A stretch of 36,794 nucleotides of DNA, taken from positions 1 through 36,794 of the forward strand of contig JABDIW010000041.1 in the NCBI GenBank assembly GCA_013003515.1, read 5' to 3'. The stretch comes from Acidimicrobiia bacterium (lineage in GTDB: Bacteria > Actinomycetota > Acidimicrobiia > Spongiisociales > UBA5794). Made by a program: the position numbers and the translations under genes. Position 1 is the first letter of the stretch, and each line of letters begins with the position of its first letter. Of the stretch, positions 6,438-29,000 are shown piece by piece. The notes beneath the pieces are model-generated. The model was not told the DNA's origin and ran no database searches. It worked only from the letters and a program-made list of their open reading frames with translations.

Positions 6438-7888
6438 GCTTGTGCCCTTACGTTGTGTCGAGTGATGAGACGGTCGAGGATGTCGAGGTCTCGGTCTGTC
6501 AGCTCGCCGGACTTGAGATGCGGGACGTCTTGCTCTTTGGCTGCGGCCTCGATCTCTGCGGCTGCCTCAGGCTCCAGCGCCTCGAACAGCTCGATGGACG
6601 CTTCGAGCCGGTCCCGGTGCGGAGCATGGAGACCCATGCCCAGCTCCAGGGTCGCGACCAGAGATGACCAGTCGGCCACGGTGTCGTGCGTCTGCTCGTC
6701 GAGCTTGGTGAGCGGCGGCAGCTTGTTCTCGACCATGAGCTTGTTGACGGCCTGCTTGGTCAGCTCTGTCCGATCGACAAGACGCGTCAGCCGCTTACGC
6801 AGCGAGCCGACTTGGGCTGCGAGTTCAGAGCCAAGGGGTTGGGGCCGCTCGGGCGCATCATGGATGATTCCCTCCCCCTTGGCTCCTCTTTCCGAAGAGG
6901 GCTCAAGCGTCATCGCCGACTCGCCCTCCTCAGGTTCTTGGATGGGCGAGCCCCCGGCAGCCGGATCAAGCTGCTCGGGGGCTCCAGCCCGCTCACCGTC
7001 GACCGACGTGGACATCCCTGTGTTCTCAGACAGGGCGTCGATGCTGACGGGAGTCATGATCGCTCGGCGTACCGCTACGCCTCGCGACTCACGAACTTGT
7101 GCGGCCAACTCGCAGAGGTCGGCGCAGACGGTGAGGTCGACTTCGATCAGCTCGACGGTGCCGTCGCCGTCGGCGGGCGCCCACACGATCAGTGCAAGCT
7201 CCTTGTCGAAGAAGTCCTCGGGGATGGGCTCGGGCTCCTGGTCGAGCCCGCGCCAGACGCGGGTGGCGGTGGCGTAGAGGTAGAGCTGGCAGCCGTAGGT
7301 GATCGGCATGTCGAACTCGGTGGGACGCCAGGCGCCGGTCTTGAAGTCGGCGATCACCGGCTTGGGACGTCCGCCGTAGTAGGTGGCGAAGTCGAACTGG
7401 CCTGCGGCGTCGTGCGAGTCGTTGATCACGAACGGCTCGATCCAGTCGTCGTCGAGCGGACGCAGGTTGGCCTCGGTCAGGAGACGAATCACGGCGTCAC
7501 GGGTGGCGACGTACTGCTCGGCCACGTCGACCACTTCGCCTGAGCGCAGGAAGCGCTCCCACACGTCGTGCATCATGGTGCCGAGCTTGGCGCGGTCGCC
7601 GTCGCCCCCGGTGCGGGCGGCTTCCTCGACGAGGGCATCGAGCGCCAGGCGATCGGCCTTGGGGTCGAGCGGGATGGCCTGCTCGGCGAGCGCTGGACGG
7701 AGCCCGGCACCTCGCAGCATCTTGCGCCGGTAGGCCCGCTCGATCTGGTAGGAGTCGGTCAGGGTCTTGCCGTACGAGGAGGGCCGCGACAGTGTTCGGG
7801 TGGAGTTGGGCTTGGTGGGATGAGGGACGACCGGGCGCCCCTGATCGTTGCGGGGCGGGAAGACGTCCTCGGCGCCTTCCATCTTCAT
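6434..7888 (-). CDS. PD-(D/E)XK RecB/Cas4-family exonuclease with a long C-terminal extension
   Basis: GTMMHDVWE, VIADFKTG (D-x-K) and GCQLYLY (QhxxY) match RecB-family nuclease motifs. About 200 aa of linker plus a helical domain follow. Confidence 0.75.
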   Translation of the reverse strand: MKMEGAEDVFPPRNDQGRPVVPHPTKPNSTRTLSRPSSYGKTLTDSYQIERAYRRKMLRGAGLRPALAEQAIPLDPKADRLALDALVEEAARTGGDGDRAKLGTMMHDVWERFLRSGEVVDVAEQYVATRDAVIRLLTEANLRPLDDDWIEPFVINDSHDAAGQFDFATYYGGRPKPVIADFKTGAWRPTEFDMPITYGCQLYLYATATRVWRGLDQEPEPIPEDFFDKELALIVWAPADGDGTVELIEVDLTVCADLCELAAQVRESRGVAVRRAIMTPVSIDALSENTGMSTSVDGERAGAPEQLDPAAGGSPIQEPEEGESAMTLEPSSERGAKGEGIIHDAPERPQPLGSELAAQVGSLRKRLTRLVDRTELTKQAVNKLMVENKLPPLTKLDEQTHDTVADWSSLVATLELGMGLHAPHRDRLEASIELFEALEPEAAAEIEAAAKEQDVPHLKSGELTDRDLDILDRLITRHNVRAQA

Positions 7889-8229
7889 GACGCCGAATCC
7901 TCAGACTCGGGTGAGGGGAAGGAACGGGCGACGTCTTCGACGAGCGTCTGTTGCTCAGGACTGAGGGCGGAGCCGTCGATCTCGACGACGCTGCCATTCA
8001 GCATCGTCATGATGAGTGCAGACGCCTCAGCGCCCGCCCTGATCAGATGATCGCGCCACTCGTCGTCGCCAGCCTCCAGCGCAGCGTGGGCCTCCTCGGC
8101 GACGGCGCACATGAGGGCAAGGCCGACCGGGTACAGGTGGCCGTCACCGGCTGCCAGGACGAGCGAGGCAGCCATTCCGACGTCGAGGTCGTAGACGTTG
8201 CGCACTTCGGGGTCTTGTTCTTCGGGCAT
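7885..8229 (-). CDS. Hypothetical acidic 114-aa protein (first gene of the early block)
   Basis: ATG at 8229 with AGGAG upstream. ATGA overlap with the next gene at 7885-7888. Confidence 0.6.
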   Translation of the reverse strand: MPEEQDPEVRNVYDLDVGMAASLVLAAGDGHLYPVGLALMCAVAEEAHAALEAGDDEWRDHLIRAGAEASALIMTMLNGSVVEIDGSALSPEQQTLVEDVARSFPSPESEDSAS

Positions 8230-8273
8230 GGCGGTGGTGACTCCTGGTCGTTTCGGGGGTTGGCGAAGGAGAC

Positions 8274-8311
8274 CCCCCGGCGGCAGGGATGCGAAACTTG
8301 CCGCCAGGGGG
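8274..8311 (-). terminator. GC-rich stem-loop downstream of the LPXTG gene
   Basis: cccccggcggca / tgccgcc(a)ggggg form a 12-bp stem with one bulged A and a 13-nt loop. It starts 30 nt after the 8341 stop. Confidence 0.45.
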
Positions 8312-8340
8312 TCGGGGTGGGGCGAGGGGGGGGGAAGCCT

Positions 8341-8979
8341 CTAGCCCACCGTCTGTCGGACCGAGGCTTTGAGTCCTGCGGCTCCGACGAGCATGAGTGC
8401 CAGTCCAACGATGGACAGCGTACGGGGATCGGTGCCCGTGTTCGGCAACCGGGTGAGCGGTGGCGGGTCTTCGTCGACCTCGCAGTTGGGGAACGTCAGA
8501 CCGCCCTCGGGGTTGCAGTCGGCGCCGTCGGGGTCCTCGACTCCACACACGCCTGCGGCGTCCCGGTCGAAGCGGCCATCACACTCGTCATCGGGCGTGG
8601 GCTCCGGCTCAGGGGTTGGGGTAGAGGTCGGGGTCGGCGTCTCGGGTGTCGGCGTCGGGGCCGGTGTCGGCGACGATTCGGGCGAAGGCGTACTCTCGGT
8701 CGTAGGTGTGGCGGTAGGTGCTGGCGATGCCGTAGCAGTCGGCACCGGGGTCTCGGTGGGTGAGGGCGATGGCTCGGGTGTGGGCGTAGCGGTCGCACCA
8801 GGCGTGGACGTCGGGGTCGGGGTGGCGGGGAAGCATTCGGGGAGCCTTTCGGGCGTGAAGAGTTCCGGCTTGTTCTCCTCTTCCCATTCGCAGCGGTCAG
8901 CGATTGCGGGGTCCGCTTGGGTCGCCATCACGAGGATGACGAGGCCCAGCCCGACGAAGAGAGTGAGGAGTGTTCGCAT
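8341..8979 (-). CDS. LPXTG-motif cell-wall-anchored surface protein with a Pro/Thr-rich spacer
   Basis: Signal peptide MRTLLTLFVGLGLVILVMATQA, a roughly 90-aa PT-rich low-complexity region, a Cys-containing module, then LPNTG plus hydrophobic helix plus KASVRQ tail (sortase sorting signal). Confidence 0.85.
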   Translation of the reverse strand: MRTLLTLFVGLGLVILVMATQADPAIADRCEWEEENKPELFTPERLPECFPATPTPTSTPGATATPTPEPSPSPTETPVPTATASPAPTATPTTESTPSPESSPTPAPTPTPETPTPTSTPTPEPEPTPDDECDGRFDRDAAGVCGVEDPDGADCNPEGGLTFPNCEVDEDPPPLTRLPNTGTDPRTLSIVGLALMLVGAAGLKASVRQTVG

Positions 8980-9092
8980 TGTTGCCCTTTCGATTACGGT
9001 GCCTTATTGGCGACACCGTGGTTACGTCTTCGGTCAAACGACCTAGGACCTTTAGCACATTCTCGCAGAAATTCGGGCCGGGCCTAAACGAC

Positions 9093-9124
9093 GAACGGCG
9101 AGGGCCGATGAGCCCCCGCCGTTC
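9093..9124 (-). terminator. Stem-loop downstream of the XRE-type HTH gene
   Basis: gaacggcgagggc / gcccccgccgttc form a 13-bp stem with one mismatch and a 6-nt loop. Followed on the minus strand by cgtcgTTTagg. Confidence 0.45.
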
Positions 9125-9154
9125 ACCCACTCCAGGCAGGTCAGTCGGCCCCAC

Positions 9155-9391
9155 CTAGACCCTTCTGTGCACGAGTTCGGCGATCGTGTTGCGGACCGCT
9201 TCGGGGCTCGGCATCGTTGCCTTCGTCCCGTCCCAGTCTAGGGCAGCCTCGATGTCCAACTCGACTGGCACCTCGGTGTCGTCGATCTCGATGCGGCGGT
9301 AAACGGTCCAGGGGATGCCGAGTCGGCTGGCGACCAGCCCCCTCGTCATCCCCTGGCGGATACGTCTTGCTTGTAGTTGGTGGCCTCTCAT
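9155..9391 (-). CDS. XRE/Cro-type helix-turn-helix DNA-binding protein (78 aa)
   Basis: LQARRIRQGMTRGLVASRLGIPWTVYRRIE resembles an HTH_3 motif. Lies directly downstream of the integrase. Confidence 0.7.
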   Translation of the reverse strand: MRGHQLQARRIRQGMTRGLVASRLGIPWTVYRRIEIDDTEVPVELDIEAALDWDGTKATMPSPEAVRNTIAELVHRRV

Positions 9392-9418
9392 GAGTAGGCC
9401 ATCGGCACTACGCGTCGG

Positions 9419-10798
9419 TTACTTGAACGTGATCTCGCAACGCTCGATGATGTCCTGCCCCCGACCGGACCGCTTCGCTGGATGGACGACGATGGACTCG
9501 ATCATCGACGCCACCGTGGCCTTGCGGGTGTCCATGTCGAGCTGCTCGAAGAACTCGATCGGGTCGTCGGCCTGGGCGAGCCTGGCGACCAGCGAAGCGG
9601 ACTCCGCCTCCATGGCTTCGGCCAGCGCAGCGTCCATCTCTGAGCGCAGCGGAGCCGCCTTGTCGTCGGTCATCGAGTTGACCTTCGCCCATTCCTCTCG
9701 GGTGATGTCGCCCGCCATGAACATCTCCAGCCCGGCAGCCCGGCGAGCCTCGATGGCGTCGAGGTCGGCCTGGATGTCTTCGAGCGCTCGGGCCTTGAGG
9801 CCGACGGTCGGATCGAAGTCTTCAAGATGATCAACCATGGCCTCAAGGGCGAGCCGCTCGACTGGTGCTGCCGAGATTGAGATGCGGCCACATCCACGGA
9901 TCTGAGCATTCACCGTGCAGCGGTAAGTGGGACGCGATCCGTATCTTTCCCTCTTGACGACATACTGCATCCCTCTGCCGCAGCCCCCGCACTTGATCGT
10001 GCCGCCGAGAAGTCGCGGCTGACGCTTCGCTCGACCCTCAGTCGTCTCCTCGGCGCGGGCACAACAGGCAGCCCACTTCTCTTCGGAGATGATCGGCTCC
10101 CACACGGCCTTGGTCATCGTGTCGCCGTGCGACCGGAGACCGGCGACACGGGGCTGGATGAGGAGTCGGCGCAGGCAGGACGGAAACCAGTTGTCATTGC
10201 CTTGAGCGGTCGACGTGCCGGTCGACTCGATCCACCGGGCGATCGACGAGAGGTTCTCGCCACCGAGGTAGCGGTCGGCTGCCTCGGCGAGAATCGCGGC
10301 CTCGTCTTCACGATGAGTGATCTGGTCGTCCTCGAAGCCGAAGGGTCGAGCGCCCCCGTTCGGACGCCCCTCTTCGGCGAGCTGCTTGTGTGCTCGCTTG
10401 ATTCGGCGTGCCATGTTCTTCGACTCCTGAGCCGCGACCGCTGCGTGGATGCGGATCGAGAACTCGTCGGTGGCGATGCCAGAGGTGCACGCGATCTCGG
10501 CGCCCTTCTGATTGAGGATGTCGAGGAGCTGCTCGATCTCCAGCGGCCGACGCGAGAGCCGGTCGACGTGGTAGGCGACGATGCGCTTGATCTTCCCGGC
10601 ACGCACGTCGTCGAGCATCCGCTCCCACTCGGGTCGGTGCTTGCCAGCCGACGCCGAGATGTCGTTGTCGATATAAGTGCCGCTGATCTTCCAGCGGCGA
10701 GAGGCGCAGAGCGCTTCGCAGTCGGCCCGCTGGCGGTCGACGCCTGCGCCTTCGTCGGTGACGTCTTTGGAGATGCGGCAATAGATGGCGGTGGTCAT
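9419..10798 (-). CDS. int: Large serine recombinase (serine integrase)
   Basis: N-terminus AIYCRISKD..GAGVDRQ carries the catalytic Ser motif. Then VAYHVDRLSR, a recombinase domain, the zinc ribbon KCGGCGRG..YRCTV..RGCG and a C-terminal coiled coil. ATG 10798 makes an ATGA overlap with the upstream gene. Confidence 0.9.
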   Translation of the reverse strand: MTTAIYCRISKDVTDEGAGVDRQRADCEALCASRRWKISGTYIDNDISASAGKHRPEWERMLDDVRAGKIKRIVAYHVDRLSRRPLEIEQLLDILNQKGAEIACTSGIATDEFSIRIHAAVAAQESKNMARRIKRAHKQLAEEGRPNGGARPFGFEDDQITHREDEAAILAEAADRYLGGENLSSIARWIESTGTSTAQGNDNWFPSCLRRLLIQPRVAGLRSHGDTMTKAVWEPIISEEKWAACCARAEETTEGRAKRQPRLLGGTIKCGGCGRGMQYVVKRERYGSRPTYRCTVNAQIRGCGRISISAAPVERLALEAMVDHLEDFDPTVGLKARALEDIQADLDAIEARRAAGLEMFMAGDITREEWAKVNSMTDDKAAPLRSEMDAALAEAMEAESASLVARLAQADDPIEFFEQLDMDTRKATVASMIESIVVHPAKRSGRGQDIIERCEITFK

Positions 10799-11073
10799 CG
10801 TGCCCCCTCCCATGGCCGGGCGGCGTAGAGGCTGGTGACCTCGGCCTCGGTGAGCTGGAGCAACCGCAGGGCGATCTCGAATCCGAGATGGTCGTCTTCG
10901 TCGGCGGCATTGGTGGCGCACCACGCGATGTGATGGGCCTCGGTGTTGCCGTCGTCGAGCACGATGTGGAGATTGCCTCCAGCGACGTTGTCCTCGTAGA
11001 GGGCGCCGATCAGTGAGGCGGTACTCGTGCGGCTACGGCGGTGGTGTTCGTGGAACCCCTGGAAGGTGGTCAT
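10795..11073 (-). CDS. Hypothetical 92-aa protein, paralog of 12868..13128
   Basis: Shares GG.L..V...GNTEAHHIAWCA..AADE.D.L.F..A.RLL.L with the plus-strand paralog. Translationally coupled (ATGA) to the integrase. RBS CGAAAGGG upstream. Confidence 0.65.
   Translation of the reverse strand: MTTFQGFHEHHRRSRTSTASLIGALYEDNVAGGNLHIVLDDGNTEAHHIAWCATNAADEDDHLGFEIALRLLQLTEAEVTSLYAARPWEGAR
10915..10950. repeat. 36-bp inverted DNA repeat, arm 1 (partner 12991..13026)
   Basis: The reverse complement matches 12991-13026 at 33/36 positions. All three mismatches are synonymous third positions in the GNTEAHHIAWCA codons. Confidence 0.7.
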
Positions 11074-15515: not shown

Positions 15516-16661
15516 TCAGCCGAGCACATCCTTGCGGATGGTCGCCAGCGGTTCGAGCGCGGACTCGTTCAACGTGTGCGACAGCTCGACCGCCTTCGAG
15601 TTGGCGTCGGCGATCGTGTGTAGAGCCTCGGCGAAGCCGGTGACCTGGGAGCGCAACGTCTCGATGAGCCGGGCCTGGTCGCCGATGAGCTGTTGAGCGA
15701 GATCGAACTGGGCAGCCAGCTCCTCGTTCGTGAGGCCCTCGGCCGGCGCGGCGTGCTCGACCAGCGGCATCGCCAAGTCGAGGAAGTGGGTCCACGCGAA
15801 CGTGCCGACGATGCCGTCGTTGTTCTTGCGTCGAGGGAACGAGGTCTCCTCGAACCGCTTCCATGCCTGGGTCAGCTCGGTCGACTTGGTGCCGTCGATC
15901 TTGCCGCCCCACAGGGGACGCCCGTCGGAGTCGGGCAGGCGGCGGAACCCGCGCTGCATGAGTTCGCACACGGGATGCTTGTCGCCTGGCTCAAGCCGGT
16001 TGTAGACCTTGCCCAGCTCGGCCAGCTCGGGCAGCTCCTCGACCTCGTCGGCCTTGGTCAAGGCGTCGATCGTCTTCGCGATGCGCTTGACGTTGAGGCG
16101 ACCTGGGTCCCAATGGTCCTGGCCGGGGCTCGTCTGGTGGGTGGCCCAACCGGTGAAGTTGTACCACTCCTTCGGAGTCTTGCGACCGACGTAGGTGTCG
16201 GTGGCCAGCACGAAGCCATCACCGTTGCCGAGCGGCGTATCCCACGAGTTCGGGATGCCGGTCAGATCCATGATGGGAGCGAAGACCTCGGTGGCGAGCC
16301 AGTCGAGCTGCTCGTTGGTCAGCTTGTGCATGTCGCGGGCGTAGCCGATCAACGTCACCTGGACGCAGAAGCGGCCAGCGTGGTTGGTCTCGAACGAGGG
16401 GTTCTTGCGGCGGTAGCTCGACGTCATCGACGAGTAGCCCTTGAGGCTGTACGCGGTGCGATCCAGGCGGATCATCTGGTACAGCTCGCGGGTCACGGGG
16501 TCGGCGATGATGTGGTACGGCCACTCCATCGAGAAGAGGGCCTTGGCCGAGCCAGCCTTGGTTTCGGTGGTGTGGACCACGCCGCGCACGGGCAGGTCGC
16601 CTCGACGAGGCTCACCACCTTTGCGCTCGTGGCCGACCCACTTTGCGTTGGGGTGCTGCAT
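15516..16661 (-). CDS. Endolysin: N-acetylmuramoyl-L-alanine amidase (amidase_2/PGRP-like) with a PG_binding_1-like domain and a C-terminal coiled coil
   Basis: VVHTTE, NHAG..VQVTLIGY and HWDPG match an amidase_2 pattern. GDKHPVCELMQRGF...DGIVGTFAW resembles a peptidoglycan-binding repeat. Lies directly after the holin. Confidence 0.85.
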   Translation of the reverse strand: MQHPNAKWVGHERKGGEPRRGDLPVRGVVHTTETKAGSAKALFSMEWPYHIIADPVTRELYQMIRLDRTAYSLKGYSSMTSSYRRKNPSFETNHAGRFCVQVTLIGYARDMHKLTNEQLDWLATEVFAPIMDLTGIPNSWDTPLGNGDGFVLATDTYVGRKTPKEWYNFTGWATHQTSPGQDHWDPGRLNVKRIAKTIDALTKADEVEELPELAELGKVYNRLEPGDKHPVCELMQRGFRRLPDSDGRPLWGGKIDGTKSTELTQAWKRFEETSFPRRKNNDGIVGTFAWTHFLDLAMPLVEHAAPAEGLTNEELAAQFDLAQQLIGDQARLIETLRSQVTGFAEALHTIADANSKAVELSHTLNESALEPLATIRKDVLG

Positions 16662-16662
16662 T

Positions 16663-16896
16663 TCAGACGAGTCCTCTCTGGGAGACGGGGACAGGGCTGA
16701 CGCGACGGATCACCGCTAGCACGCCCAGAAGGGTCGTGATCGCTTGGCCGATCCAGTCCGCCAGCTCGGGGGTGGCGAGGACCACGTCCTGGGTGAGGAC
16801 GAATTGGAGCACTGCGACGGTAGCGGCGATCCAGGTCACCGCGGAGCCGAGCACTACTTGGGCGCGCTCTATGAATTGGTCGAGGAGCATTGCCAT
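16663..16896 (-). CDS. Holin (two transmembrane helices)
   Basis: Helices VVLGSAVTWIAATVAVLQFVL and WIGQAITTLLGVLAVI with a basic C-tail. Immediately upstream of the endolysin. A second ATG at 16890 has better spacing from GAAAGGA. Confidence 0.7.
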   Translation of the reverse strand: MAMLLDQFIERAQVVLGSAVTWIAATVAVLQFVLTQDVVLATPELADWIGQAITTLLGVLAVIRRVSPVPVSQRGLV

Positions 16897-16908
16897 TCCT
16901 TTCAGGGG

Positions 16909-19044
16909 TTACGAGGTGAGTGAGGCGTCGAAGCGGCGCTCGTTGAGCGTCACGTCGAAGCGACGGAGGCCGAGCACCACGCGCACGACGGTGGGGTCGC
17001 GGGGGACGCCACCGCTGAACGTCATGGCCCCGAACGCTGTGGTGGGCGCGATACCGAGCAACGTGAGGTCGCGGTTGCCGACGGTGAACGCCATGACGCC
17101 GAACGCGGTGGTGGATGCGATGCCGGTGGCGTCGAAGTTCTCGTTCGAGCCGAAGGCCATCGTGCCGAACGCTGTCGTGGGCGCGATGCCCAAGGCGTCG
17201 AAGTCGACGTTGCCCGTCGTGAACGACATCGTGCCGAAGGCCGTCGTCGGGGCGATGCCGTTGGCCGAGAAGGTGCCGGGCTGGCTGAACGCCATCGTGC
17301 CGAACGCTGTGGTGGGCGCGATGCCCAGAGCGTCGAAGTCGACGTTGCCTTCGGTGAGAGCCATCGTGCCGAACGCTGTGGTCGGGGCGATGCCGACGGC
17401 CGTGAACTCTTCGGCGAGGTTGCCGCCCTCGAAGTTGTCGAAGACTCGGACACCCTGCCAGCCGCCACCAGCGGAGCCGGTGTAGTGGCTGAGGCCCGCG
17501 TCGCCGCCGACAGCGACCGTGCCAGGCACGGTGCCGGTGAACTCGACGACGTCATTGATCTTGCAGGTGACGTTGCCTGCGGCGTCGATCTCGATGCGCT
17601 GGATGTCGCCGGTCGCGATCGCCGAGCCGCCACCTTCGACGGCCGTGAAGCTCCCGTTGATTACGTAGCCCCACTCCGAGTCGGTGCCATCGCCTTGGAA
17701 GAAGACGCCGTTGCCGCCCGTCTGGCACCAGACGGCTGGACCGGCAAGGATGCCCGAGAGTGCCCTGCGCTCGACCTCGGCGTACTGGGCGTCCCCGTAG
17801 TTGCCGTCGTGGCCGTAGAGGAGCTTGGTGCCTGAGCCTGCGAGGTTGACGTCGACACCGATCGAGGTGCCGTCGTCATAGACACGCATCTGACCGTTGT
17901 CGGTGGCCGAGTGATCGGTCCAGTTGCTCGTGGTGCCCAGCTCGGCGAGATGGGTATGGGCCTGGAAGTCGTCGGTGTAGGGCGGGTCGCCGACATCGTT
18001 CTGGAGGTCGACGACGCCGAACGCTGTGGTGGGTGCGATGCCGGTGGCGTCGAAGTTGACATTGCCAGCGGTGAACGACATGGCACCGAACGCCGTCGTG
18101 GGCGCGATGCCGGTGGCGTCGAAGTCGACGTTCGAGCTGAACGACATGGCGCCGAAGGCGGTGGTGGGCGCGATGCCCAGGGCGTCGAAGTCGACGTTGC
18201 CTGTCGTGAACGACATGGCACCGAAGGCGGTGGTCGGCGCGATGCCGAGCGCGTTGAACTCCGTGGCCCCACTGAACGACATGACGCCGAACGCCGTGGT
18301 GGGCGCGATGCCGGTGGCGTCGAAGTCGACGTTGCCTTCGGTGAGGGCCATCGTGCCGAACGCTGTGGTCGGGGCGATGCCGGTGGCGTCGAAGTCGACG
18401 TTGCCTTCGGTGAGGGCCATCGTGCCGAACGCGACCGTGGATGCGATGCCGAGCGCGTTGAAGTCTTCGTTCGCCGCGGTGGCGTCGGTGCATTCCCAGT
18501 CGTCGGCCTGGACGCCGTTGCCTGCCGTCGTGCCGTTGGTGCAGATGCCCGGCTTGCCCGAGGCGTGGGTAGCGTCCGTCGTCGACTGCCACGAACCCGC
18601 GTTCTGGCGCACACGGATCGTTGTGCCTGTTGCTTCGAGGCGTACGCTGTCGCCAGCCGCGGTGGTTGGAAGGCTGCTCGTGAGCTGAGTGATGGTGCCG
18701 GTGTCGATGCGATAGGACCGCATGACCCCGCCGCCCAGAAGGCCGAGATAGCCGTCGCCAGCGGAGTCGCCGCGCACGGTGACGAACATGCCGACGTCGT
18801 TGTTGTCCTTGACGAACTCGGCGTACTGGTCGTCAGGGAACGACGCTTCGGCCCGGAGCCACAACGCTGAGGTGTGGCCGCCGTCGTAGCCGTACTGGAT
18901 CAGCTCGATGCGTTGGTCGCCAGCGACGTCCACGACCTCGACGTCGGCGAGTGTGGACGTCGACTCCTCGTAGTCTTTCGACCAGTCGGCGTGGTTCTCC
19001 AGGTTGCCGAGAGAGTAGGACTCGAAGTCTGTGGTGATCGGCAT
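16909..19044 (-). CDS. Repeat-rich tail fibre / receptor-binding candidate (711 aa)
   Basis: Last structural gene before the lysis cassette. Two roughly 190-aa beta-rich domains are each followed by an array of 22-23-aa DFDAxGIAPTTAFGxMxF repeats (7 and 6 copies). Confidence 0.8.
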   Translation of the reverse strand: MPITTDFESYSLGNLENHADWSKDYEESTSTLADVEVVDVAGDQRIELIQYGYDGGHTSALWLRAEASFPDDQYAEFVKDNNDVGMFVTVRGDSAGDGYLGLLGGGVMRSYRIDTGTITQLTSSLPTTAAGDSVRLEATGTTIRVRQNAGSWQSTTDATHASGKPGICTNGTTAGNGVQADDWECTDATAANEDFNALGIASTVAFGTMALTEGNVDFDATGIAPTTAFGTMALTEGNVDFDATGIAPTTAFGVMSFSGATEFNALGIAPTTAFGAMSFTTGNVDFDALGIAPTTAFGAMSFSSNVDFDATGIAPTTAFGAMSFTAGNVNFDATGIAPTTAFGVVDLQNDVGDPPYTDDFQAHTHLAELGTTSNWTDHSATDNGQMRVYDDGTSIGVDVNLAGSGTKLLYGHDGNYGDAQYAEVERRALSGILAGPAVWCQTGGNGVFFQGDGTDSEWGYVINGSFTAVEGGGSAIATGDIQRIEIDAAGNVTCKINDVVEFTGTVPGTVAVGGDAGLSHYTGSAGGGWQGVRVFDNFEGGNLAEEFTAVGIAPTTAFGTMALTEGNVDFDALGIAPTTAFGTMAFSQPGTFSANGIAPTTAFGTMSFTTGNVDFDALGIAPTTAFGTMAFGSNENFDATGIASTTAFGVMAFTVGNRDLTLLGIAPTTAFGAMTFSGGVPRDPTVVRVVLGLRRFDVTLNERRFDASLTS
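17014..17409 (-). repeat. In-frame tandem repeat array 2 (6 copies, 66-69 nt period)
   Basis: Encodes aa 546-677. The 65-nt stretch 17331-17395 matches 18318-18382 with one mismatch. Confidence 0.85.
18007..18465 (-). repeat. In-frame tandem repeat array 1 (7 copies, 66-69 nt period)
   Basis: Encodes aa 194-346. A perfect 59-nt duplicate lies at 18305-18363 and 18374-18432 (69-nt period). Confidence 0.85.
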
Positions 19045-19045
19045 C

Positions 19046-19468
19046 TCAGACCGCCTTTAGGGCCTCGGACTTGAGCGCTGCGACCAAGCCCTCGGCGTCC
19101 AGGGGCGTCTCGTTCCCGCCTTCGCGGTGCTGCCCAGACAGGAAGTCGGCGATGAGGCGGTCGATGAGTAGCTCGTAGGTCTCTTCGGCTGCGGCAAGAG
19201 AAGTGGCCGCTATCGGCGAGATGGTGTCCTGGAGTGTCTCGGGGAAGGCGAAGATGTCGTCCTGGTTGACCAGGCGGCGATGGTCGTCCTTGGAGATGCC
19301 TTCGCAGTAGAGGAGGCACATGGCGTCCCAGCCGGGGATGTCCATGGCTCGCCACGCGCAGGTCACGAGCGGCACGGCGTCGATGTCGTTGACATACTTG
19401 GGGGCGCGGTACTTGTGGCGCACCGAACGGCCACGCTCCATGGGCACGAGGTACCAGCGGTTCATCAT
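19046..19468 (-). CDS. Hypothetical 140-aa protein in the tail module
   Basis: ATGA overlap with the upstream gene. Ends 2 nt before the fibre gene ATG. No motif recognised. Confidence 0.65.
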   Translation of the reverse strand: MMNRWYLVPMERGRSVRHKYRAPKYVNDIDAVPLVTCAWRAMDIPGWDAMCLLYCEGISKDDHRRLVNQDDIFAFPETLQDTISPIAATSLAAAEETYELLIDRLIADFLSGQHREGGNETPLDAEGLVAALKSEALKAV

Positions 19469-19884
19469 TCCTCATCTCCGTCGAAGATCGTCCACGCCGT
19501 GAACTGCCAAGGCTCGATGCCGAGGAAGTCCGCTATGCGCTCGATGACGGCATCGACGTCATCGACGACGTGCCGATAGTCGACCGTCAGGGTGGGTTTG
19601 CCGCATGAGGCCAGGAACTCCTGGGTGGAGGTCGTTGCCTCCTGCCACAGGTCGAGGGCCTCTTCTTCGGTGCGCCCCATCGCCCAGCCTCGGCGCTGGA
19701 TGGACCGCACGGCACCACGGCGGTGCGCATAGATGTAGCTGTCCGCGTCGACCGGGCGCCGCGTCGGGAACGACTGCATGGTCACTCCCTGGGGACCGAG
19801 CGAGGACTCGGCGAGGATGGTATGTAGGAGCCCCTTGCCCGAAGCGACCGCTCCTACAATGGCCACCCTGCGCCGATCCTGCAC
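19465..19884 (-). CDS. Small P-loop / sulfotransferase-like protein (139 aa), tentative
   Basis: RVAIVGAVASGKGLL is P-loop or 5-prime-PSB-like. The C-terminus LTVDYRHVVDDVDAVIERIADFLGIEP resembles the conserved sulfotransferase tail (YE.L..DP...i.ri..FLG). GTG start at 19884. Confidence 0.45.
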   Translation of the reverse strand: MQDRRRVAIVGAVASGKGLLHTILAESSLGPQGVTMQSFPTRRPVDADSYIYAHRRGAVRSIQRRGWAMGRTEEEALDLWQEATTSTQEFLASCGKPTLTVDYRHVVDDVDAVIERIADFLGIEPWQFTAWTIFDGDEE

Positions 19885-20677: not shown

Positions 20678-22438
20678 TTATGGTGTGGCGGTGATCGAGT
20701 CACCGACGTAGACGAACGTGGAGGTCGAGAAGTTGAGGACGAGGTCTTGGTCGGTTGACGTCTTCGACTTGACCTGGAGGTCGATCTCGTCGCCCTCCTC
20801 GACCACGAACAGGTCGACAATGGAACCGTGCCAGGCGACCGCGTTGTTCGACGGCGCTGACTCCAACATCTGCCCGCGCTTCTGACCGTTGAGGACGTGA
20901 CGGAGGCCACGGAGGCCGTCGTCGCCGAGTGTCGTCTCGTCCTCGTCGTCGGCTGCGGTGGGGTCAATCGTCGCGTTGCTGATCGCCAGCACGAGGCCGG
21001 GGTAGGGAGCCTTGAAGCCGCCGTTGTTGTTGACGACCTTGATCGGTGAGTCGTCCTGGGTCACGCCATGGGGGGCGAACAGCGTGCGCACGTGGCTGAC
21101 GGTCTTCCACTTGCCGTCTTCGGTGTGCTGGCCATCCTTGCGGCTCATGTAGCGCTTGACGATGAGCGGCGCCCACAGGTAGTCCATGACGTCAGAGAGC
21201 ACGTTCATGTAGCCGTGGGGCAGGTAGGCGGTGCTCATGTCTGCGTAGCTCGGCAGCTCGGCCGCTGGAGGAAGACCGGTCTTCTCCTTGACGAACTTCT
21301 GGCCCTCGGCACTGGTGTCGTCAGGGTCACCGGCGACCATGGTCACGGCGAGGTAGGAGTTGTGCTGGCCTTCGAGGACCGGGGATGTGGCGACCGCGTA
21401 GGCTTGCACGCGAACGATGTCGCCGATCTCCAGCTTCACGATGTCGTGGTTCTCGACGAAGGTCTCGCCGTTGATCGCGTAGGGTCCGGTGCCAGTGCTC
21501 GAACCGCTCGGCTGGGAGCCGTTGACGGTGAAGCGGGAGTTGACACGGTTGCCTGAGGTGTTGATCCCCGAGAATGCCAGGCAGGACGCGAGCCAGTAGT
21601 ACCCGGCTTGCTGGATGATGATCTGGGCTGCCCCGACGCCGACCATTGCGTCGTCGGTCTCATAGACGTTGTCCGCCATGTTGGCGTAAGTCCAGGTGCT
21701 CGACGTGAGCGACTGGTTGGCGTTCTGACGGATACGGGCCGCTGGGCGGTTGTCCAACCTGTTCTGGTTGTTCGCCATGTTGTTCCACCAGTCGATCGGT
21801 GAGTCGTTCACCGTGATGCGAGCTGGGGCGTAGTTGAGGGTGCTGTTCCCGTTACTTCCAATGTGGAGACCCCACCAGTGTGCGGGCTCGTTGTTGGACA
21901 TCGTCGAGAGTGGCGTGGTCGTGTCGCTGTGATGGACTTGCACCTGAAAGGCGTAGTCGGCGTCGGTGAAGTTCATGACCGTCGCGGCGTGGAACCTGTG
22001 CGCCTTGTCGGTGGCCTGGGCGAGCTGGTTGTTGAGCTGGAGATTCGTGGTGCCGTCGGTGCGGCGCAGTCGGATCTCGCGCTCACCGTCGCCTGTGCCC
22101 GGCCGCAGTCCTCCCGTGAAGCCACACGCCCAGATGCCCGGCTCACCTTTGCCGAGATTGATCCAGTCCGACAAGATGTCGGTTGCGGACTCGAAGAGTT
22201 CGTTAGAACTCCCTTCGAGCCAGACGGTATGCCACTCCTCGCTTCCTGAGACAGGGATGTTGTAGTTGACGCTTTGGAACGACCCCGATGCCAACGACGA
22301 AGCGCCCGTAGTGTTCTCTCGGATCAGGAACGTCGAGCGTCCACGCCGGAACCAGTCGATGTTGTCTTCGAGGTCCTGGAGCTGGGCTGCCGAGATGGCC
22401 CCCGTAGCGCCCTTGGTGGCGACCGCAGTGAAGCTCAT
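20678..22438 (-). CDS. Minor tail / tail-tip protein (586 aa) with apparent threefold internal repetition
   Basis: ATGA overlap with the distal tail gene. Three segments of roughly 170 aa each end in a GD.I.VQV-like strand (AFQVQVHH, GDIVRVQAY, GDEIDLQVK). Confidence 0.7.
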   Translation of the reverse strand: MSFTAVATKGATGAISAAQLQDLEDNIDWFRRGRSTFLIRENTTGASSLASGSFQSVNYNIPVSGSEEWHTVWLEGSSNELFESATDILSDWINLGKGEPGIWACGFTGGLRPGTGDGEREIRLRRTDGTTNLQLNNQLAQATDKAHRFHAATVMNFTDADYAFQVQVHHSDTTTPLSTMSNNEPAHWWGLHIGSNGNSTLNYAPARITVNDSPIDWWNNMANNQNRLDNRPAARIRQNANQSLTSSTWTYANMADNVYETDDAMVGVGAAQIIIQQAGYYWLASCLAFSGINTSGNRVNSRFTVNGSQPSGSSTGTGPYAINGETFVENHDIVKLEIGDIVRVQAYAVATSPVLEGQHNSYLAVTMVAGDPDDTSAEGQKFVKEKTGLPPAAELPSYADMSTAYLPHGYMNVLSDVMDYLWAPLIVKRYMSRKDGQHTEDGKWKTVSHVRTLFAPHGVTQDDSPIKVVNNNGGFKAPYPGLVLAISNATIDPTAADDEDETTLGDDGLRGLRHVLNGQKRGQMLESAPSNNAVAWHGSIVDLFVVEEGDEIDLQVKSKTSTDQDLVLNFSTSTFVYVGDSITATP

Positions 22439-23640
22439 TCCGCTGGCCTCCCTGAGGTCTGATTGGCGACCCCGACCTCATGCCAGTTGTCTGAGCGGGT
22501 CTGGCGGTTGGTGTCGTAGGGGGACAGTCCCAGCTTCATGGTCCAATCCTGCTCGGTCATCTCGTGCGTGACGGTCTCGATGCGGTGATCGACGTCGTAG
22601 TTGGAGGCGTGGCCCACGAAAGGCAGGTTCACCCCGAGCGAGGTGAGCGGCTCGAAGTGCGAGAGCATGAGCTGATCGGAGATGAGGTCCGGCGCCGAGA
22701 TGGGTTTAATCGTGACCTCCTTGAGTGCCTGCACCGTCGAGATCGCTCCGTCGCCCGCGGCCCACGCCTGGGCCTCGACGTCGCCGTCATACATCGCCTG
22801 CGTGCCGTTGATCGACCGAACGATCCTGATCTCGTTCGCTGTGGTCGTGCCGCGGGTGAGCACCTTGCCGGTCACGCCCGAGCTGCTTCCCTCGGTCACG
22901 TCTTGGGAATCGAGGAAGTTCGAGGGGACCACGTCCGCCGCCGAGACATGGTCTTCGGTGAGGTCGAAGTTGACCGTCGAGTAGTCGGTGTCGGTGTAGA
23001 TGGTGTGGCGGTCCAGGAAGACCAGCTCGCCGCGGTTGTTGCAGAAGAACGCACCGTGCTCGGTGCGCTGCATCTCCTGGCAGATGCTCAGGGCGTTGCC
23101 GTTGAGGGTCGTGGCCGGACACATCACGGTTCCGCTGTCGATGCGGTCACGCAGGGCACTGGGCGTGCCGACGTGATCGAGTACGGCCGCTACACGTGTG
23201 CCGGTGAGTTCGGCCGGGCGCTCCAGCTCCTCGACGTTGAAGCGACCGAGCGAGGTCGACAGGAGGTCTTGCCCGGTCATCACGGCGCCCGAGTGGGTGT
23301 TGAAGTGGCCGATCGCGATGTTCGTGCAGTAGACGCGCCCGAGGCGGTGCGGCGTGGCGAAGAGGTCATCGGAGAAGGTCAGGCGCATGGCCATGCCCTT
23401 GCGGAGGTTGTTGTAGTGCGGGCTCGACGAGTTATCCCGGTCCCACTGCCCCGAGTTATTGCGGAGCTTGAACTGGATCTCCCGCGGGCGGAAGTTGCCG
23501 CCGTCGCCGCCCTGGCGTCCAGTCACCATGCGTGCGCCGTGGATGTCGGAGGTGATGTCGACCCACGTGCTCGCGGTCAGGGGCGCGTTGTAGCTGATCT
23601 CGGCTCGGAGCCATGTGTCGAGGTTCGGCCCAAGAGGCAT
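22435..23640 (-). CDS. Distal tail protein (siphovirus tail component family)
   Basis: Immediately follows the tape measure gene (TAATG overlap). The N-terminus ...WVDITSDIHGARMVTGRQ... is typical of Dit-like proteins. The call is mainly positional. Confidence 0.7.
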   Translation of the reverse strand: MPLGPNLDTWLRAEISYNAPLTASTWVDITSDIHGARMVTGRQGGDGGNFRPREIQFKLRNNSGQWDRDNSSSPHYNNLRKGMAMRLTFSDDLFATPHRLGRVYCTNIAIGHFNTHSGAVMTGQDLLSTSLGRFNVEELERPAELTGTRVAAVLDHVGTPSALRDRIDSGTVMCPATTLNGNALSICQEMQRTEHGAFFCNNRGELVFLDRHTIYTDTDYSTVNFDLTEDHVSAADVVPSNFLDSQDVTEGSSSGVTGKVLTRGTTTANEIRIVRSINGTQAMYDGDVEAQAWAAGDGAISTVQALKEVTIKPISAPDLISDQLMLSHFEPLTSLGVNLPFVGHASNYDVDHRIETVTHEMTEQDWTMKLGLSPYDTNRQTRSDNWHEVGVANQTSGRPAE

Positions 23641-25952
23641 TACGCGCTCGCTCCTCGGATGATGAGCGGTGCCCCGCCCTCACTGTTGAGGGCGTTGACG
23701 ACGCCGCGACCGACTTCGATGCCGTCAAGTTCGATGGTGATCGGCTGGTTGGTACCGGTGGTCCGCCCTGGCCCGGTTGGGACGAAGAGGGCAGACTGGG
23801 TGCCGCCAGCGTTCGGGATACGAGCCGAGACGACTTGACTCCCGCCCGAGGCCCCGCCGTCCGAGCTGCCGCCCGTCGAACCGTTGCTCGTACCACCCTG
23901 GCTGCGTGGGGTGGTCGGAATCGTCGGCGTGATGAACAGCGTTCCGAGATTGGCCTGGGTCTCAGCGATCCAGACAAGCATCGCACGTGTAGCGGCGTCG
24001 AAGCCCTCGACCTCCAGGCTCACTTCGATGATGTCGGGGACCTGTTCCATCTTGGTGATCAACATGCCGAGGTCTTCTTCGGACACGCCAGCGTCCCTGG
24101 CGAGGTCGATGATGGGCTGCTTGGCGAACGCCCACGCGGCCGCTATCTGATCGGGCGTGAGGTTCTGCTCCAAGGCCATCGTCGCGACCGTGTCGGCAGC
24201 CGCCGACGCGGCAGCCTCGAACGCTTGGGCAGCCGCGTACCCTTCGTCAGTGAACTTCGAGAACGAGCCGCCCGAGCCGCCGTCTTTCTCTGGCGCCAGA
24301 GCCTCTTGGAGGTCACGTAGTGCTGCCTGGAGGGCGTACTCTTCGTCGTCGAAGAACAGGAGGTCGATCATCTCTCGGGTGGCGCGCTTGGCGTCGTCCA
24401 TGACGTCCGCCATCTTCTTGCCCTCGACCTTGAGCATCGTCACCTTGGAGGTGAATTTCTCGAGTTTCTCGGCGCCCTCGTCGCCCGCGTCGCCGACATC
24501 TTCGACCGCAGCCGCTACGTCGTTGAGGCCGAGCGCCTCGGCGTTCTCCGCTATAGCGGCACCACGTTCGAGCACCTCGAAGAGTTCGCGCAATGCAGCC
24601 TGGGCTTCGAGCCGCGGCGTGTCGCCGCTGTCGCCAAATAGGCGACCGAGGAGACTCGTGTCCGGCAATTGCACGTCGTCGAAGTTGAGGAGCTTGAGGA
24701 AGGTCTCTACTTCCCCTCCTGCGCCCGAGAAGGCGGTCTCTATCATCTCTGCGCTGATACTCGCCTCGGCGAGTTGCTCGGCGAGGTTGATATCGGAGAG
24801 AACGAACTGTCGCAGAAAGTTGCCCTGGCCGAGGAACGCGTCGCCGACTGCCTTGATCTCTTCCGCTACATCACGTGCGAGCGCTGCGGTCCGTTCTTGT
24901 TGCGTGTTGTAGTTGTCCCAGAAGATCAGCGCGCCTGCGAGTGCCGCCCCGATGCCAGCGATCGCCAGCTTGGTGCTTACGGCAGTCGTACGGAATCGGG
25001 CGAGACCGTCCTTCACTTTGCGGACGTTGCCAGCGAAGACGGCAGCTCCACCGGCTGCGAAGTTGAAGGCCGTGACGAGTATGCCAAGGCGAACAATGTT
25101 CTTCTGGACCTCAGGGTCGAGGCTCGTGAACGCGTTGAGGAGGCCGAGCACGCCACCGGCAAGTTCCTTGATCACCGGCAGGGCTTCTTGGCCGAGGAGC
25201 GCCACCGAGTCCTCGAACTCGGCTCGGACCTGGGCCTGGGTGCGGGCCAGCTCGTTGGCTGGATCAAGGTAGGCGCCAATGGTGTCTGCGGTCTGCTCGG
25301 TCAGTAGGTCGACGGCGGCGACCGCTTCGGCGTGACGGAGGAGAGCTGGCGTAGAGTCGTCGAGCCCGAGCGTTGCCACCCGCGCTGAGATCATCGCCTG
25401 AGTGATCGTGACGCCGAAGCGCTCGATCGTGTCGAACTCCTTACGGAAGATGCCCGAGATCGCGTTGACGGCCTCGCCTTGGGTCCGACCGAACGCTGCG
25501 GCGCGATCGTTACCGATCGTGAGCACCTTGTTCGTGAGTTCGGCTGCCTCTTCGAGATCGAAGCCGAGGTTCTTGATCTGCGAGCCGATTGTGCCAGCGG
25601 CCTGCCGGTACGCCTGCTCGGAGAGCCCGAGCTTCTCGGCGCTCACCTTGGCGAACTCGTCGATCTTGCTTGCGGCGTCCCCGAAGACGGTGCCCGTCAA
25701 GAACTGACTCTTGGCCAGATCCTCACCGGCACGCGCAGCCTTCGAGAGCCCGGTCAGCATGAGCGTGCCCGCAGCGAGCATCCGTGCGCCGGTCTTGCGC
25801 CACGCGGCCGATGTGGCGTCGGCTGCCTTGGTGGACTTTTTACCTGAGCGGTCCGCGGCGTCACCGAAGCGATCCAGCTCACGCGCGGCGAGCTGGCCGT
25901 CCTTCACGCGCAGCGCGAAGGTGACCGTGTTGGTGAAGCTCATGCCACGCAT
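23640..25952 (-). CDS. Tape measure protein (770 aa)
   Basis: Long, Ala/Gly/Leu-rich and helical, with hydrophobic segments. Lies directly after the frameshifted chaperone pair. Confidence 0.85.
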   Translation of the reverse strand: MRGMSFTNTVTFALRVKDGQLAARELDRFGDAADRSGKKSTKAADATSAAWRKTGARMLAAGTLMLTGLSKAARAGEDLAKSQFLTGTVFGDAASKIDEFAKVSAEKLGLSEQAYRQAAGTIGSQIKNLGFDLEEAAELTNKVLTIGNDRAAAFGRTQGEAVNAISGIFRKEFDTIERFGVTITQAMISARVATLGLDDSTPALLRHAEAVAAVDLLTEQTADTIGAYLDPANELARTQAQVRAEFEDSVALLGQEALPVIKELAGGVLGLLNAFTSLDPEVQKNIVRLGILVTAFNFAAGGAAVFAGNVRKVKDGLARFRTTAVSTKLAIAGIGAALAGALIFWDNYNTQQERTAALARDVAEEIKAVGDAFLGQGNFLRQFVLSDINLAEQLAEASISAEMIETAFSGAGGEVETFLKLLNFDDVQLPDTSLLGRLFGDSGDTPRLEAQAALRELFEVLERGAAIAENAEALGLNDVAAAVEDVGDAGDEGAEKLEKFTSKVTMLKVEGKKMADVMDDAKRATREMIDLLFFDDEEYALQAALRDLQEALAPEKDGGSGGSFSKFTDEGYAAAQAFEAAASAAADTVATMALEQNLTPDQIAAAWAFAKQPIIDLARDAGVSEEDLGMLITKMEQVPDIIEVSLEVEGFDAATRAMLVWIAETQANLGTLFITPTIPTTPRSQGGTSNGSTGGSSDGGASGGSQVVSARIPNAGGTQSALFVPTGPGRTTGTNQPITIELDGIEVGRGVVNALNSEGGAPLIIRGASA

Positions 25953-27277: not shown

Positions 27278-27682
27278 TCAGGCGTAAACCGTGGTGATGT
27301 CGAAGGCTCGCCACTGCACGTTCTGGGTGTTCAAGTCACCCTGAGACGCGTCGAGGTGGGTGAGCTGCGAGACCAGGACGTTGCCAGCCCACTCGGGGTT
27401 GGATGTGCTCGCCGCCCCGTTGAAGGGCCGCAGGACGAACGCCTGCGACGTCTTGTAGAACGGGGCGATGGTCTGGTACAGCGCCGACGCGTCGTAGTCC
27501 TGGGCGAACGTGACACGCATCGAGGCGGTGGAGAGGCCGACGACGAAGCTGCGCTGCGTCTGGCCCCACACGGTCGACTCGACTTCGTCGGACTCTTCGT
27601 CGAAGGTGACCGACTGGACGTAAGCCGAGAGATCGGCGGCGCCCACGGACAGAAAGCCGCCCGTTACGACATGGATTGCCAT
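27278..27682 (-). CDS. Putative major tail (tube) protein (134 aa)
   Basis: Own 93-nt leader with a strong AAGGAG RBS and the conserved 30-nt element. Beta-rich sequence ...LSVGAADLSAYVQSVTFDEESDEVESTVWG... resembles small tail-tube proteins. Confidence 0.5.
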   Translation of the reverse strand: MAIHVVTGGFLSVGAADLSAYVQSVTFDEESDEVESTVWGQTQRSFVVGLSTASMRVTFAQDYDASALYQTIAPFYKTSQAFVLRPFNGAASTSNPEWAGNVLVSQLTHLDASQGDLNTQNVQWRAFDITTVYA

Positions 27683-27979: not shown

Positions 27980-28398
27980 GTGATGCTCCTGAGTAGGGCG
28001 CCCGCCACCATGTCGATGGCGAGGTAGCGCGTGTTGTCTTGCTGGTTGAGAACGACAGTCATGCCGCCGCCTGTCACCTGGAGTTCCTCGAATGGTCCCG
28101 ACGTCTCCGTCTTGAGTTCTTCGAGCACCGTCTTGAGACCGGTGTCGGGGTCGAGGATGCGGTAGCCGAGCGCCCAGCTCTCCTCGGCGATGCGGTACTT
28201 GGCTGCGAAGCGCAGCGAGAAGGTGACGTCGAGGAAGTCGCCCCAGAGGGGGTTGTTGTCGTCGATGCGGAAGTCCTGGATGAAGAAGTGGCTGTCCAGG
28301 TTGTCGTCGGGCGGGTGCGGGGTGGACGCGTAAACATCGGGATGCTCCAACGCTTTGTCGGCGAGGAGGATGGCGGCGGCTTCGATGCGTTCGGTCAC
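27976..28398 (-). CDS. Head-tail joining protein (140 aa), assigned by position
   Basis: GTGA overlaps at both ends. Lies between the adaptor-like gene and the tail genes. Confidence 0.55.
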   Translation of the reverse strand: MTERIEAAAILLADKALEHPDVYASTPHPPDDNLDSHFFIQDFRIDDNNPLWGDFLDVTFSLRFAAKYRIAEESWALGYRILDPDTGLKTVLEELKTETSGPFEELQVTGGGMTVVLNQQDNTRYLAIDMVAGALLRSIT

Positions 28399-29000
28399 AG
28401 GACGATCCTCACGAAGGGCTCGATGAGCGTCGCGGCGTCACGGTCGAGGCCGGACTGCACACGGACGACCGAGCCGAAGCCATCGACGCCGAGAGTGCCC
28501 GATGGGGCGTCCCCGCGGTCGACGAGCTTGGATGCCTGGAGCAAGGTGGCCTCGGCGATGTCGTCGGGGATCTCGGGCCATCCCCAGCGGGCCGTGACCC
28601 TCACGGAGGGCCAAGCTGCGCACGAAAGGAACTTGCCGGGGTTGATCATGACGACCGACTCGGTGGACCAGGTCCGCGAGTTGAAGCGCCCGTTGAGGGG
28701 CTCGAAGATGAAGTCGGTGTCGACGGTCAGGGCCGTCCATGAGCCGGTGCGAGCGGTCTTGTACTCGACGACCGTGTTGACGTCGGCCACGCAGTCGTCG
28801 ATGTCGAGGCGGTGGGCTTGCTCGGGCCGGAAGACCCGCGAGTTGCCGCCATGGGCTGCCGGGGCGACGGCGAAGTCGCGTCCGGTGTGTTCGGCGATCT
28901 GCGCCGTTGCCGCCTCAAGTGCGCGGGCGAGGGCGTCGTCGTTCGTTGACTTCGTCGCCCCTAGGCGCGCCTTGAGGTCGGCAATCGACGCATAGGTCAT
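28395..29000 (-). CDS. Head-tail connector / adaptor (gp6-like N-domain), 201 aa
   Basis: MTYASIADLKARLG...NDDALARALEAATAQIAEHTGRDF matches the gp6-like head-tail connector signature. Confidence 0.7.
   Translation of the reverse strand: MTYASIADLKARLGATKSTNDDALARALEAATAQIAEHTGRDFAVAPAAHGGNSRVFRPEQAHRLDIDDCVADVNTVVEYKTARTGSWTALTVDTDFIFEPLNGRFNSRTWSTESVVMINPGKFLSCAAWPSVRVTARWGWPEIPDDIAEATLLQASKLVDRGDAPSGTLGVDGFGSVVRVQSGLDRDAATLIEPFVRIVL

Follow-up and report, generated by a model that had tools for sequence, protein, structure and literature searches.

A putative receptor-binding tail protein with two lectin-type β-sandwich domains and two repeat arrays, encoded by a temperate siphovirus contig of an Acidimicrobiia assembly

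The stretch of DNA analysed here (the window) is the whole 36,794-bp contig JABDIW010000041.1 of an Acidimicrobiia metagenome-assembled genome (MAG; GCA_013003515.1). All of its large annotated genes lie on the minus strand and follow one another in a siphovirus-type series that runs from the terminase and portal genes through the head genes to the tape measure gene (Table 1). Several tail open reading frames (ORFs) stand between the tape measure gene and an ORF of 711 amino acids (aa), recorded as HKN01_01515 and called ORF711 below, which is the subject of this report. Receptor-binding proteins decide the host range of phages, and we know of none that has been characterised for uncultured actinobacterial lineages such as Acidimicrobiia. 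We propose that ORF711 is a tail protein of a temperate siphovirus, either the receptor-binding protein or an accessory minor tail protein, in which two lectin-type sandwich domains combined with rods would bind glycans, and which arose by domain shuffling followed by array copying. We put the probability of this reading at roughly 70%.

ORF711 consists of a β-sandwich domain followed by a repeat array, twice over, so that the layout described in a first-pass annotation of the sequence was borne out. The first domain (D1) leads into array 1 and the second domain (D2), flanked by short linkers, leads into array 2, the units of which are colinear with units 2-7 of array 1. The expected 13 motif units GIA[PS]T[TV]AFG were found, seven in the first array and six in the second. 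Because 23- and 22-aa units alternate, Tandem Repeats Finder (TRF) reported a super-period of 135 nt (scores 435 and 510). The protein ends in a short, basic tail with β-strand character (PRDPTVVRVVLGLRRFDVTLNERRFDASLTS); a docking peptide is one possible role for it, offered only as a guess. Short basic tails rich in V and R also follow the C-terminal arrays of some homologues, which are designated here by P numbers (VVRVVLGLRRFDV in ORF711, VVSVREKRF in P0083), and the tails behind C-terminal arrays are mostly heterogeneous among homologues.

Table 1. Features of ORF711 and genes of the window, with positions on the 36,794-bp contig
Feature	Positions	Strand	Evidence
ORF711, complete, ATG start, 711 aa + stop codon; putative receptor-binding / minor tail protein	16909-19044	-	
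D1, aa 1-193, predicted concanavalin-A-like β-sandwich, distant CBM66 relative	18466-19044	-	AlphaFold2 (AF2), profile match, Foldseek
Array 1, aa 194-352, 7 units (23, 23, 22, 23, 22, 23, 23 aa)	17989-18465	-	motif, TRF, AF2
D2 + short linkers, domain at aa ~357-545, divergent member of the sandwich family of D1	17410-17988	-	profile built without D2
Array 2, aa 546-681, 6 units (23, 22, 23, 22, 23, 23 aa)	17002-17409	-	
C-terminal tail, aa 682-711	16912-17001	-	sequence
Perfect direct duplicate, 59 nt	18305-18363 / 18374-18432		
65-nt tract with one mismatch, common to both arrays	17331-17395 vs 18318-18382		
Large terminase (TerL)	34019-35530	-	
Portal	32491-33873	-	
Protease	30786-31514	-	
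Major capsid protein	29335-30789	-	
Head-tail adaptor	28395-29000	-	
Major tail protein	27278-27682	-	
Tape measure	23640-25952	-	
Holin-like ORF, 77 aa, two hydrophobic segments, marks the end of the tail module	16663-16896	-	sequence; without family match
Endolysin	15516-16661	-	phrog_17214, 1e-5
Large serine integrase	9419-10924	-	phrog_95, 3.9e-96

D1 and D2 are homologous, as the first-pass annotation had supposed. A profile was needed to establish this, because direct BLASTP of aa 1-192 against aa 346-546 was not significant (27% identity over 150 residues, E = 0.11). The profile, built from D1 homologues with D2 left out, aligned along its entire length to aa 357-543 with an independent E-value of 9.7e-11. 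In the family alignment of 28 sequences, D2 included, the landmarks noted earlier as common to the two domains align column for column: the starts TDF/DDF, the motifs DDQYAEF/DAQYAEV, the strands GDSVRLEATG/GDIQRIEIDAAG and the ends DDWE/DNFE. The two domains are 20% identical. D2 is equidistant from all family members (17-26% identity, with one outlier at 13%), D1 being no closer to it than the others, and has no close relative. The nearest relatives of D1 are found in other proteins (P0004-P0009), with which it shares 44-50% identity. D1 retains the near-invariant residues of the family, W21, R91, Y99, G116, G140, D157, G163 and G166. D2 alone among the 28 aligned sequences lacks the R, Y and D, which are replaced by W439 (for R91), V447 (for Y99) and P507 (for D157), and it carries A419 where D1 has D72. 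Because four family-conserved residues were lost, D2 has probably changed its function, which could mean an altered specificity or a structural role.

A search of Pfam with D1 or D2 gave no match beyond noise at E ≤ 10. The profile of the D family matched CBM66 of Bacillus subtilis (BsCBM66; PDB IDs 4B1L, 4AZZ and 4B1M) with E = 7e-9 and 39 bits over about 145 residues, and the columns of the R, Y and D residues and of the G..G pair are aligned between the two. As a single sequence, D1 did not reach CBM66 in a search of PDB sequences. With the family alignment as input, AF2 predicted an all-β structure of 15 strands for D1, with a predicted local distance difference test score (pLDDT) of 89.3 and a predicted TM score (pTM) of 0.87. 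By both sequence homology and the predicted β-sandwich (jelly-roll) fold, the D family falls into the CBM66 / concanavalin-A-like superfamily, to which no curated Pfam model assigns it. A Foldseek search with the D1 model revealed chain 8zdo_a and the central fibre gp20 of phage Douge as the best PDB neighbours (query-normalised TM score, TMq, 0.64-0.66), followed by CBM66, the lectin domain of galactocerebrosidase, calreticulin and legume-type lectins. The best matches among predicted viral structures were minor tail proteins of actinophages (TM about 0.75). From its length of 311 residues we take chain 8zdo_a to be BppU, residues 116-311 of which form a carbohydrate-binding module (CBM). This CBM and the N- and C-terminal domains of the central fibre bind M. 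smegmatis cells and fragments of lipoarabinomannan (LAM)/arabinomannan (AM) and α-glucan experimentally (PMC13033339). The homology and the predicted fold suggest that D1 is a glycan-binding domain for receptor recognition, and the sandwich domains would most likely bind glycans of the host cell envelope.

D domains also occur in other arrangements. The metagenomic protein P0071 (2261 aa) has 11 tandem D domains and a Big_2 domain, without GIxSxEAFG repeats, and represents an extreme multivalent version. On the IMG/VR contig UViG_3300019360_000024, a D-family domain is present in each of two adjacent overlapping ORFs of 331 and 507 aa (7449-9904), and an ORF upstream of them resembles a major capsid protein on visual inspection; here the D domains are doubled as separate genes within one structural module. 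A tblastn search of phage genomes with D1 alone gave no match.

A HMMER search with full-length ORF711 against 1.84 billion representative proteins revealed 774 matches at E < 1e-3, and most of the best 150 of these match ORF711 through the repeat. Among these 150 proteins the arrays have periods of 20, 22 or 23 aa and 4-38 copies, and 1308 motif instances yielded the 23-aa family consensus G-I-A-S-A-E-A-F-G-T-A-T-V-T-P-G-A-V-T-I-S-P-T. The ORF711 motif GIAPTTAFG is a divergent variant, with P at position 4 (S in 83% of the family) and T at position 6 (E in 68%). ORF711 also matches PHROG 13352, "minor tail protein" (E = 4e-22, 79 bits), in four stretches at profile positions 15-93 of 702, i.e., in the repeat part only; its 13 units of 22/23 aa follow the pattern of this group, tandem 20-24-aa units with the core G-[ILV]-x-[ST]-x-x-x-[FL]-G. 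Judged from sequence, the repeat is not peculiar to ORF711 and belongs to a large family annotated as minor tail proteins.

When a canonical array was used as the query, tblastn matched 58 phage records, 54 of which are mycobacteriophages (Marvin, MosMoris, Wildcat, Thumb, Kumao, McProf and others); the whole ORF711 protein gave only one weak phage match, Thumb gp31. Nearly all of the matches listed are annotated "minor tail protein", and a few "hypothetical protein". In Thumb, Beckerton and Kumao, no further annotated minor tail gene follows the repeat gene; two small ORFs separate it from the lysis genes in Thumb and Beckerton. The repeat proteins of Thumb, Marvin, MosMoris, RedRaider77, Blackbeetle, Kumao and Beckerton begin with M..(G/F)WWAE.F directly before the first repeat, and the next gene in each of these seven phages is a conserved ORF of about 135 aa (405-408 nt) without assigned function; the two proteins may act as a unit in attachment or assembly.

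The repeat had not been recognised as a named family in the first-pass annotation, and this held: Pfam, NCBIfam and the PDB sequences yielded no family for it, whether ORF711, parts of it, canonical homologues or a 39-sequence array profile served as the query. Pfam DUF7349 (PF24040) was considered and rejected, since it reached 19 bits against a cut-off of 27, covered 16 residues and did not match the canonical repeat proteins either. Weak matches of DUF1942, TPR_30 and Spermine_synt_N on the array were below threshold and were treated as noise. A search of full-text literature for the repeat motif strings and DUF7349 returned nothing relevant. A word-indexed search with the whole protein retrieved ORF711 itself only, repeat words swamping the candidates, and one with the array alignment retrieved three proteins without names.

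The structure of aa 186-360 was predicted by AF2 from the array alignment with pLDDT 86 and pTM 0.80, four of the five models scoring above 81. Two strands were found per unit, (N)VDFDAxGI and AFGxMxF. The PDB neighbours of this model are weak and almost all β-solenoids (SufD, tapirin, pectate lyase, ice-binding proteins, CsgA/FapC and filamentous haemagglutinin). The monomer model and these neighbours support the earlier suggestion of a β-solenoid-like repeat, in which each unit would be one coil of a two-sheet β-solenoid. The usual rise in β-solenoids is 0.48 nm per coil, which would give a rod of about 3.4 nm for seven coils and about 2.9 nm for six. Such rods of 22/23-residue strand-turn-strand units may space and orient the sandwich domains. 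Alternatively, the arrays could be the shaft of a homotrimeric intertwined fibre (a triple β-helix or β-spiral), with the sandwich domains as knobs along the trimer. The monomer model is self-consistent, however, and the two strands of every unit carry alternating hydrophobic residues, sufficient for a core of its own, whereas the repeats of known triple β-spirals and β-helices are shorter, at about 8-15 residues. What speaks for a trimeric shaft is that most phage fibres and receptor-binding proteins are trimers, that the arrays lack a significant match to monomeric PDB folds, and that the mycobacteriophage arrays lie between an N-terminal peptide and a globular domain, the usual place of a shaft. 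We regard a trimeric shaft as unlikely, although it is a serious candidate, and prefer the solenoid rod.

At the DNA level, the two long shared tracts of the arrays lie exactly where they had been placed (Table 1). The 59-nt perfect duplicate has an offset of 69 nt, i.e., one unit, and the 65-nt tract with one mismatch has an in-frame offset of 987 nt (329 codons). No other tract shared within the gene is longer than 35-36 nt. A run of 19 identical codons has a chance of about 6e-7 per unit pair (calculated from an amino acid identity of about 65% between units and from 72% identical codons at residues that match), and the two tracts are not due to chance. The earlier description of the DNA copies as nearly identical was overstated, since the 13 units are pairwise 57-89% identical in DNA and 45-86% in protein. 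Moreover, identity between the DNA copies is inflated because the G+C content at third codon positions (GC3) of the gene is high, at 0.886. At matching residues 72% of the codons are identical, compared with 57% expected from the codon usage of the phage itself; between units 2 and 8 the figure is 16 of 17 codons, with 9 expected. The excess of identical codons is real, but it is confined mainly to a few unit pairs. The recent recombination or gene conversion proposed earlier is supported to the extent that a few tracts show signs of recent intragenic exchange.

Judged by these offsets, recombination at 69 nt would add or remove one unit, and recombination at the in-frame 987 nt would remove 329 residues and leave D1 with one array. 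This raises the alternative that the gene is a contingency locus, in which units, or D2 together with an array, are often gained or lost through the near-identical tracts, and fibre length or valency, hence host range, varies within populations. The 59- and 65-nt repeats at their one-unit and in-frame offsets, the identical codons in excess of the codon-usage prediction, and the range of 4-38 copies across the family are all consistent with such a locus. However, there are only two or three long tracts, the other unit pairs being 57-85% identical, and the longest perfect tract between the arrays is 36 nt, which is near the minimum for efficient homologous recombination. Copy number is also fixed in the two mycobacteriophage clusters examined, in which the repeat family is part of an otherwise different protein: Marvin, MosMoris, RedRaider77 and Blackbeetle (cluster S) have five units each, and the repeat genes of Thumb and Beckerton are identical in length. 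No variant of the ORF711 gene appeared in the collections searched, and INPHARED (including by megablast), IMG/VR, the protein collections and one metagenome scan held no close relative of it. A search of IMG/VR with the D1-subfamily alignment found two loci with D domains, both without repeats, and the metagenome scan, which used a degenerate DNA pattern for D[DN][WF]ECTD, found 17 loci, of which three carried true D domains and none had the repeat of ORF711. The copy-number instability put forward in the first-pass annotation is thus unsupported, and a contingency locus seems to us quite unlikely.

A tandem duplication of the whole module had been proposed as the origin of ORF711. Such an event would leave the copies of each part mutually closest and comparably diverged, a pattern that was found for the arrays but not for the domains. 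The arrays are 68% identical in amino acids and are each other's best database match, the best foreign array (P0002) reaching 53%. Both share the unit-length pattern 23-22-23-22-23-23, and the two observations together point to later array copying or gene conversion. In contrast, D1 and D2 have only the low identity given above, and D2 is no nearer to D1 than to unrelated members of the family; therefore the module was not recently duplicated as a unit. The sandwich and array parts of the module thus appear, from sequence comparison, to have different histories.

Other proteins give a view of how these parts are combined. An array stands directly behind a D domain in seven other proteins of the best 150 (P0003, P0017, P0066, P0070, P0075, P0090 and P0115), and D domain plus array is therefore a recurrent module. 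The D domains of P0008, P0009, P0084, P0144 and P0150 precede unrelated short repeats of at least five kinds. P0004 has the order of D domain and repeat two times over, with a repeat of another kind; as far as the best 150 proteins show, this double order with the ORF711 repeat is seen in ORF711 only. These arrangements suggest a general design of a lectin domain plus a repetitive rod, with interchangeable rods. The repeats observed behind D domains in P0004, P0008, P0009, P0084, P0144 and P0150 are EFDGTIAVAVTASGAG, YGGTVTAxG, GATTATFGVTFPxGVL, FxDFSQSA, SSAIAPTV and ATRGRLSFxExEVP. We infer the following order of events. Sandwich domains and repeat arrays may have been shuffled independently across phages; D1 and D2 would have diverged long before the second array was copied from the first or homogenised with it; and the last step would have been a very recent duplication of one unit, with unit 1 as an extra copy of unit 2, giving the 59-nt repeat.

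The position of ORF711 as the last gene of the tail module, also noted in the first-pass annotation, is supported by the lysis cassette directly downstream, which consists of the holin-like ORF and the endolysin; an exonuclease gene lies beyond the endolysin. On its other side, ORF711 starts one base past the stop codon of the preceding ORF of the tail module, and translational coupling of the two is therefore likely. The large serine integrase indicates that the phage is temperate, and the contig may represent either the genome of a free phage or part of a prophage. Plus-strand ORFs that overlap the gene (e.g., 16643-17485 and 18026-18688) were rejected as genes; they reflect the repeats on the opposite strand and were regarded as spurious ORFs of the kind common in DNA of 65% G+C.

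Being directly upstream of the holin-like ORF and the endolysin, ORF711 could in principle be a cell-wall-binding accessory of the lysis cassette or, in a temperate phage with a serine integrase, a surface adhesin expressed during lysogeny, rather than a virion protein. Lectin-type domains and β repeats do occur in cell-wall-binding proteins, but D-type folds occur in baseplate proteins, and the functionally annotated homologues are minor tail proteins encoded in tail modules. Scans of the family libraries detected neither a signal peptide nor a catalytic domain in ORF711, and the likely coupling to the preceding tail-module ORF also argues against a role outside the virion, which we consider very improbable.

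Two further ORFs of the tail module, both on the minus strand, were observed. One of 139 aa (19465-19884) matches the C-terminal part of Pfam Sulfotransfer_3 (PF13469) with E = 1.7e-6 and 28.9 bits (cut-off 27). A sulfotransferase-like fragment is unusual amid tail genes; possible substrates are a tail protein and a host glycan, and it may also be a remnant. The other, of 586 aa (20678-22438), has a sub-threshold match to BclA_C, a C1q/TNF-like trimeric head (E = 7e-4, 19.9 bits against 38), and may be a second receptor-binding protein of the phage.

Several points weigh against the reading of ORF711 as a glycan-binding tail protein with solenoid rods. None of the 28 D-family members is matched by any Pfam model at E ≤ 0.01, CBM66/DUF1080 and Laminin_G_3 included. 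The proposed location in the virion rests on annotation and gene position. The N-terminus of ORF711 is D1 itself, without a recognisable anchor domain, and the mycobacteriophage homologues have the reverse order, with the array N-terminal and the globular domain C-terminal, so that the orientation of ORF711 in the tail is ambiguous. The array model found no significant PDB match by Foldseek (best E = 0.13). It is, moreover, a monomer computed by AF2 from an alignment of repeats, and for repetitive β-rich sequences AF2 is known to return solenoids with high confidence; the fibres of phages, in addition, are trimeric as a rule.

Tail proteins of phages are typically modular, rich in repeats and equipped with lectin domains. 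ORF711 is thus unsurprising in kind to a phage specialist; its value lies in annotation and in structure determination, for which it offers a target. It shows two reusable building blocks that curated libraries have missed, a CBM66-related sandwich and a 20-23-residue β repeat. The sandwich has no Pfam model, and the repeat has neither a Pfam or NCBIfam model nor a solved structure, yet it occurs in dozens of cultured mycobacteriophages. Naming both modules and solving their structures would improve the annotation of "minor tail proteins" in actinophages, including therapeutic mycobacteriophages, and would supply defined units for host-range engineering. A bolder proposal, which we hold to be fairly unlikely, is that the G-I-x-S-x-E-A-F-G unit of 20-23 residues forms a structurally new β-solenoid shaft that is widespread in the phage tails of actinobacterial and environmental phages, and that it makes up, with the CBM66-like sandwich, a portable "lectin-on-a-stalk" cassette, which could be stacked, as it is twice here, or removed by in-frame recombination between arrays. 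If this were true, such cassettes would let phages alter the reach or the valency of their receptor binding by simple means.

Among known systems, the two-sheet β-solenoids (curli CsgA/FapC and the ice-binding, SufD-type and pectate-lyase-type proteins) have coils of about 19-23 residues, similar to the array unit, whereas they show no sequence relation to the arrays and match them with E ≥ 0.13 and TM ≤ 0.41. The repeat family of ORF711 is shared with Marvin gp88, MosMoris gp90, Thumb gp31, Kumao gp32, Wildcat gp45 and McProf gp72, which have a period of 20-24 aa, the core G-I-x-S-x-E-A-F-G and the motif GI(P/A)SAEAFG. In these mycobacteriophage proteins the conserved peptide M..GWWAE.F leads into a single short N-terminal array of 4-5 units, and the C-terminal part is an unrelated globular region, unlike in ORF711, in which two arrays of 6-7 units each stand behind a lectin-type domain. 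For the sandwich, CBM66 of the levanase SacC of Bacillus subtilis has a concanavalin-A-like β-sandwich like that predicted for D1 (Foldseek probability 1.0; target-normalised TM score, TMt, 0.60-0.64), but identity is about 14-15%, and fructan binding by the D family is not implied. The closest structural likeness to D1 is with tail-tip glycan-binding domains of the mycobacteriophage Douge, the C-terminal CBM of BppU and gp20 (PDB IDs 8ZDO and 8ZDP). The Douge domains are 14-16% identical in sequence to D1 and belong to different overall proteins, without repeat arrays of the ORF711 type.

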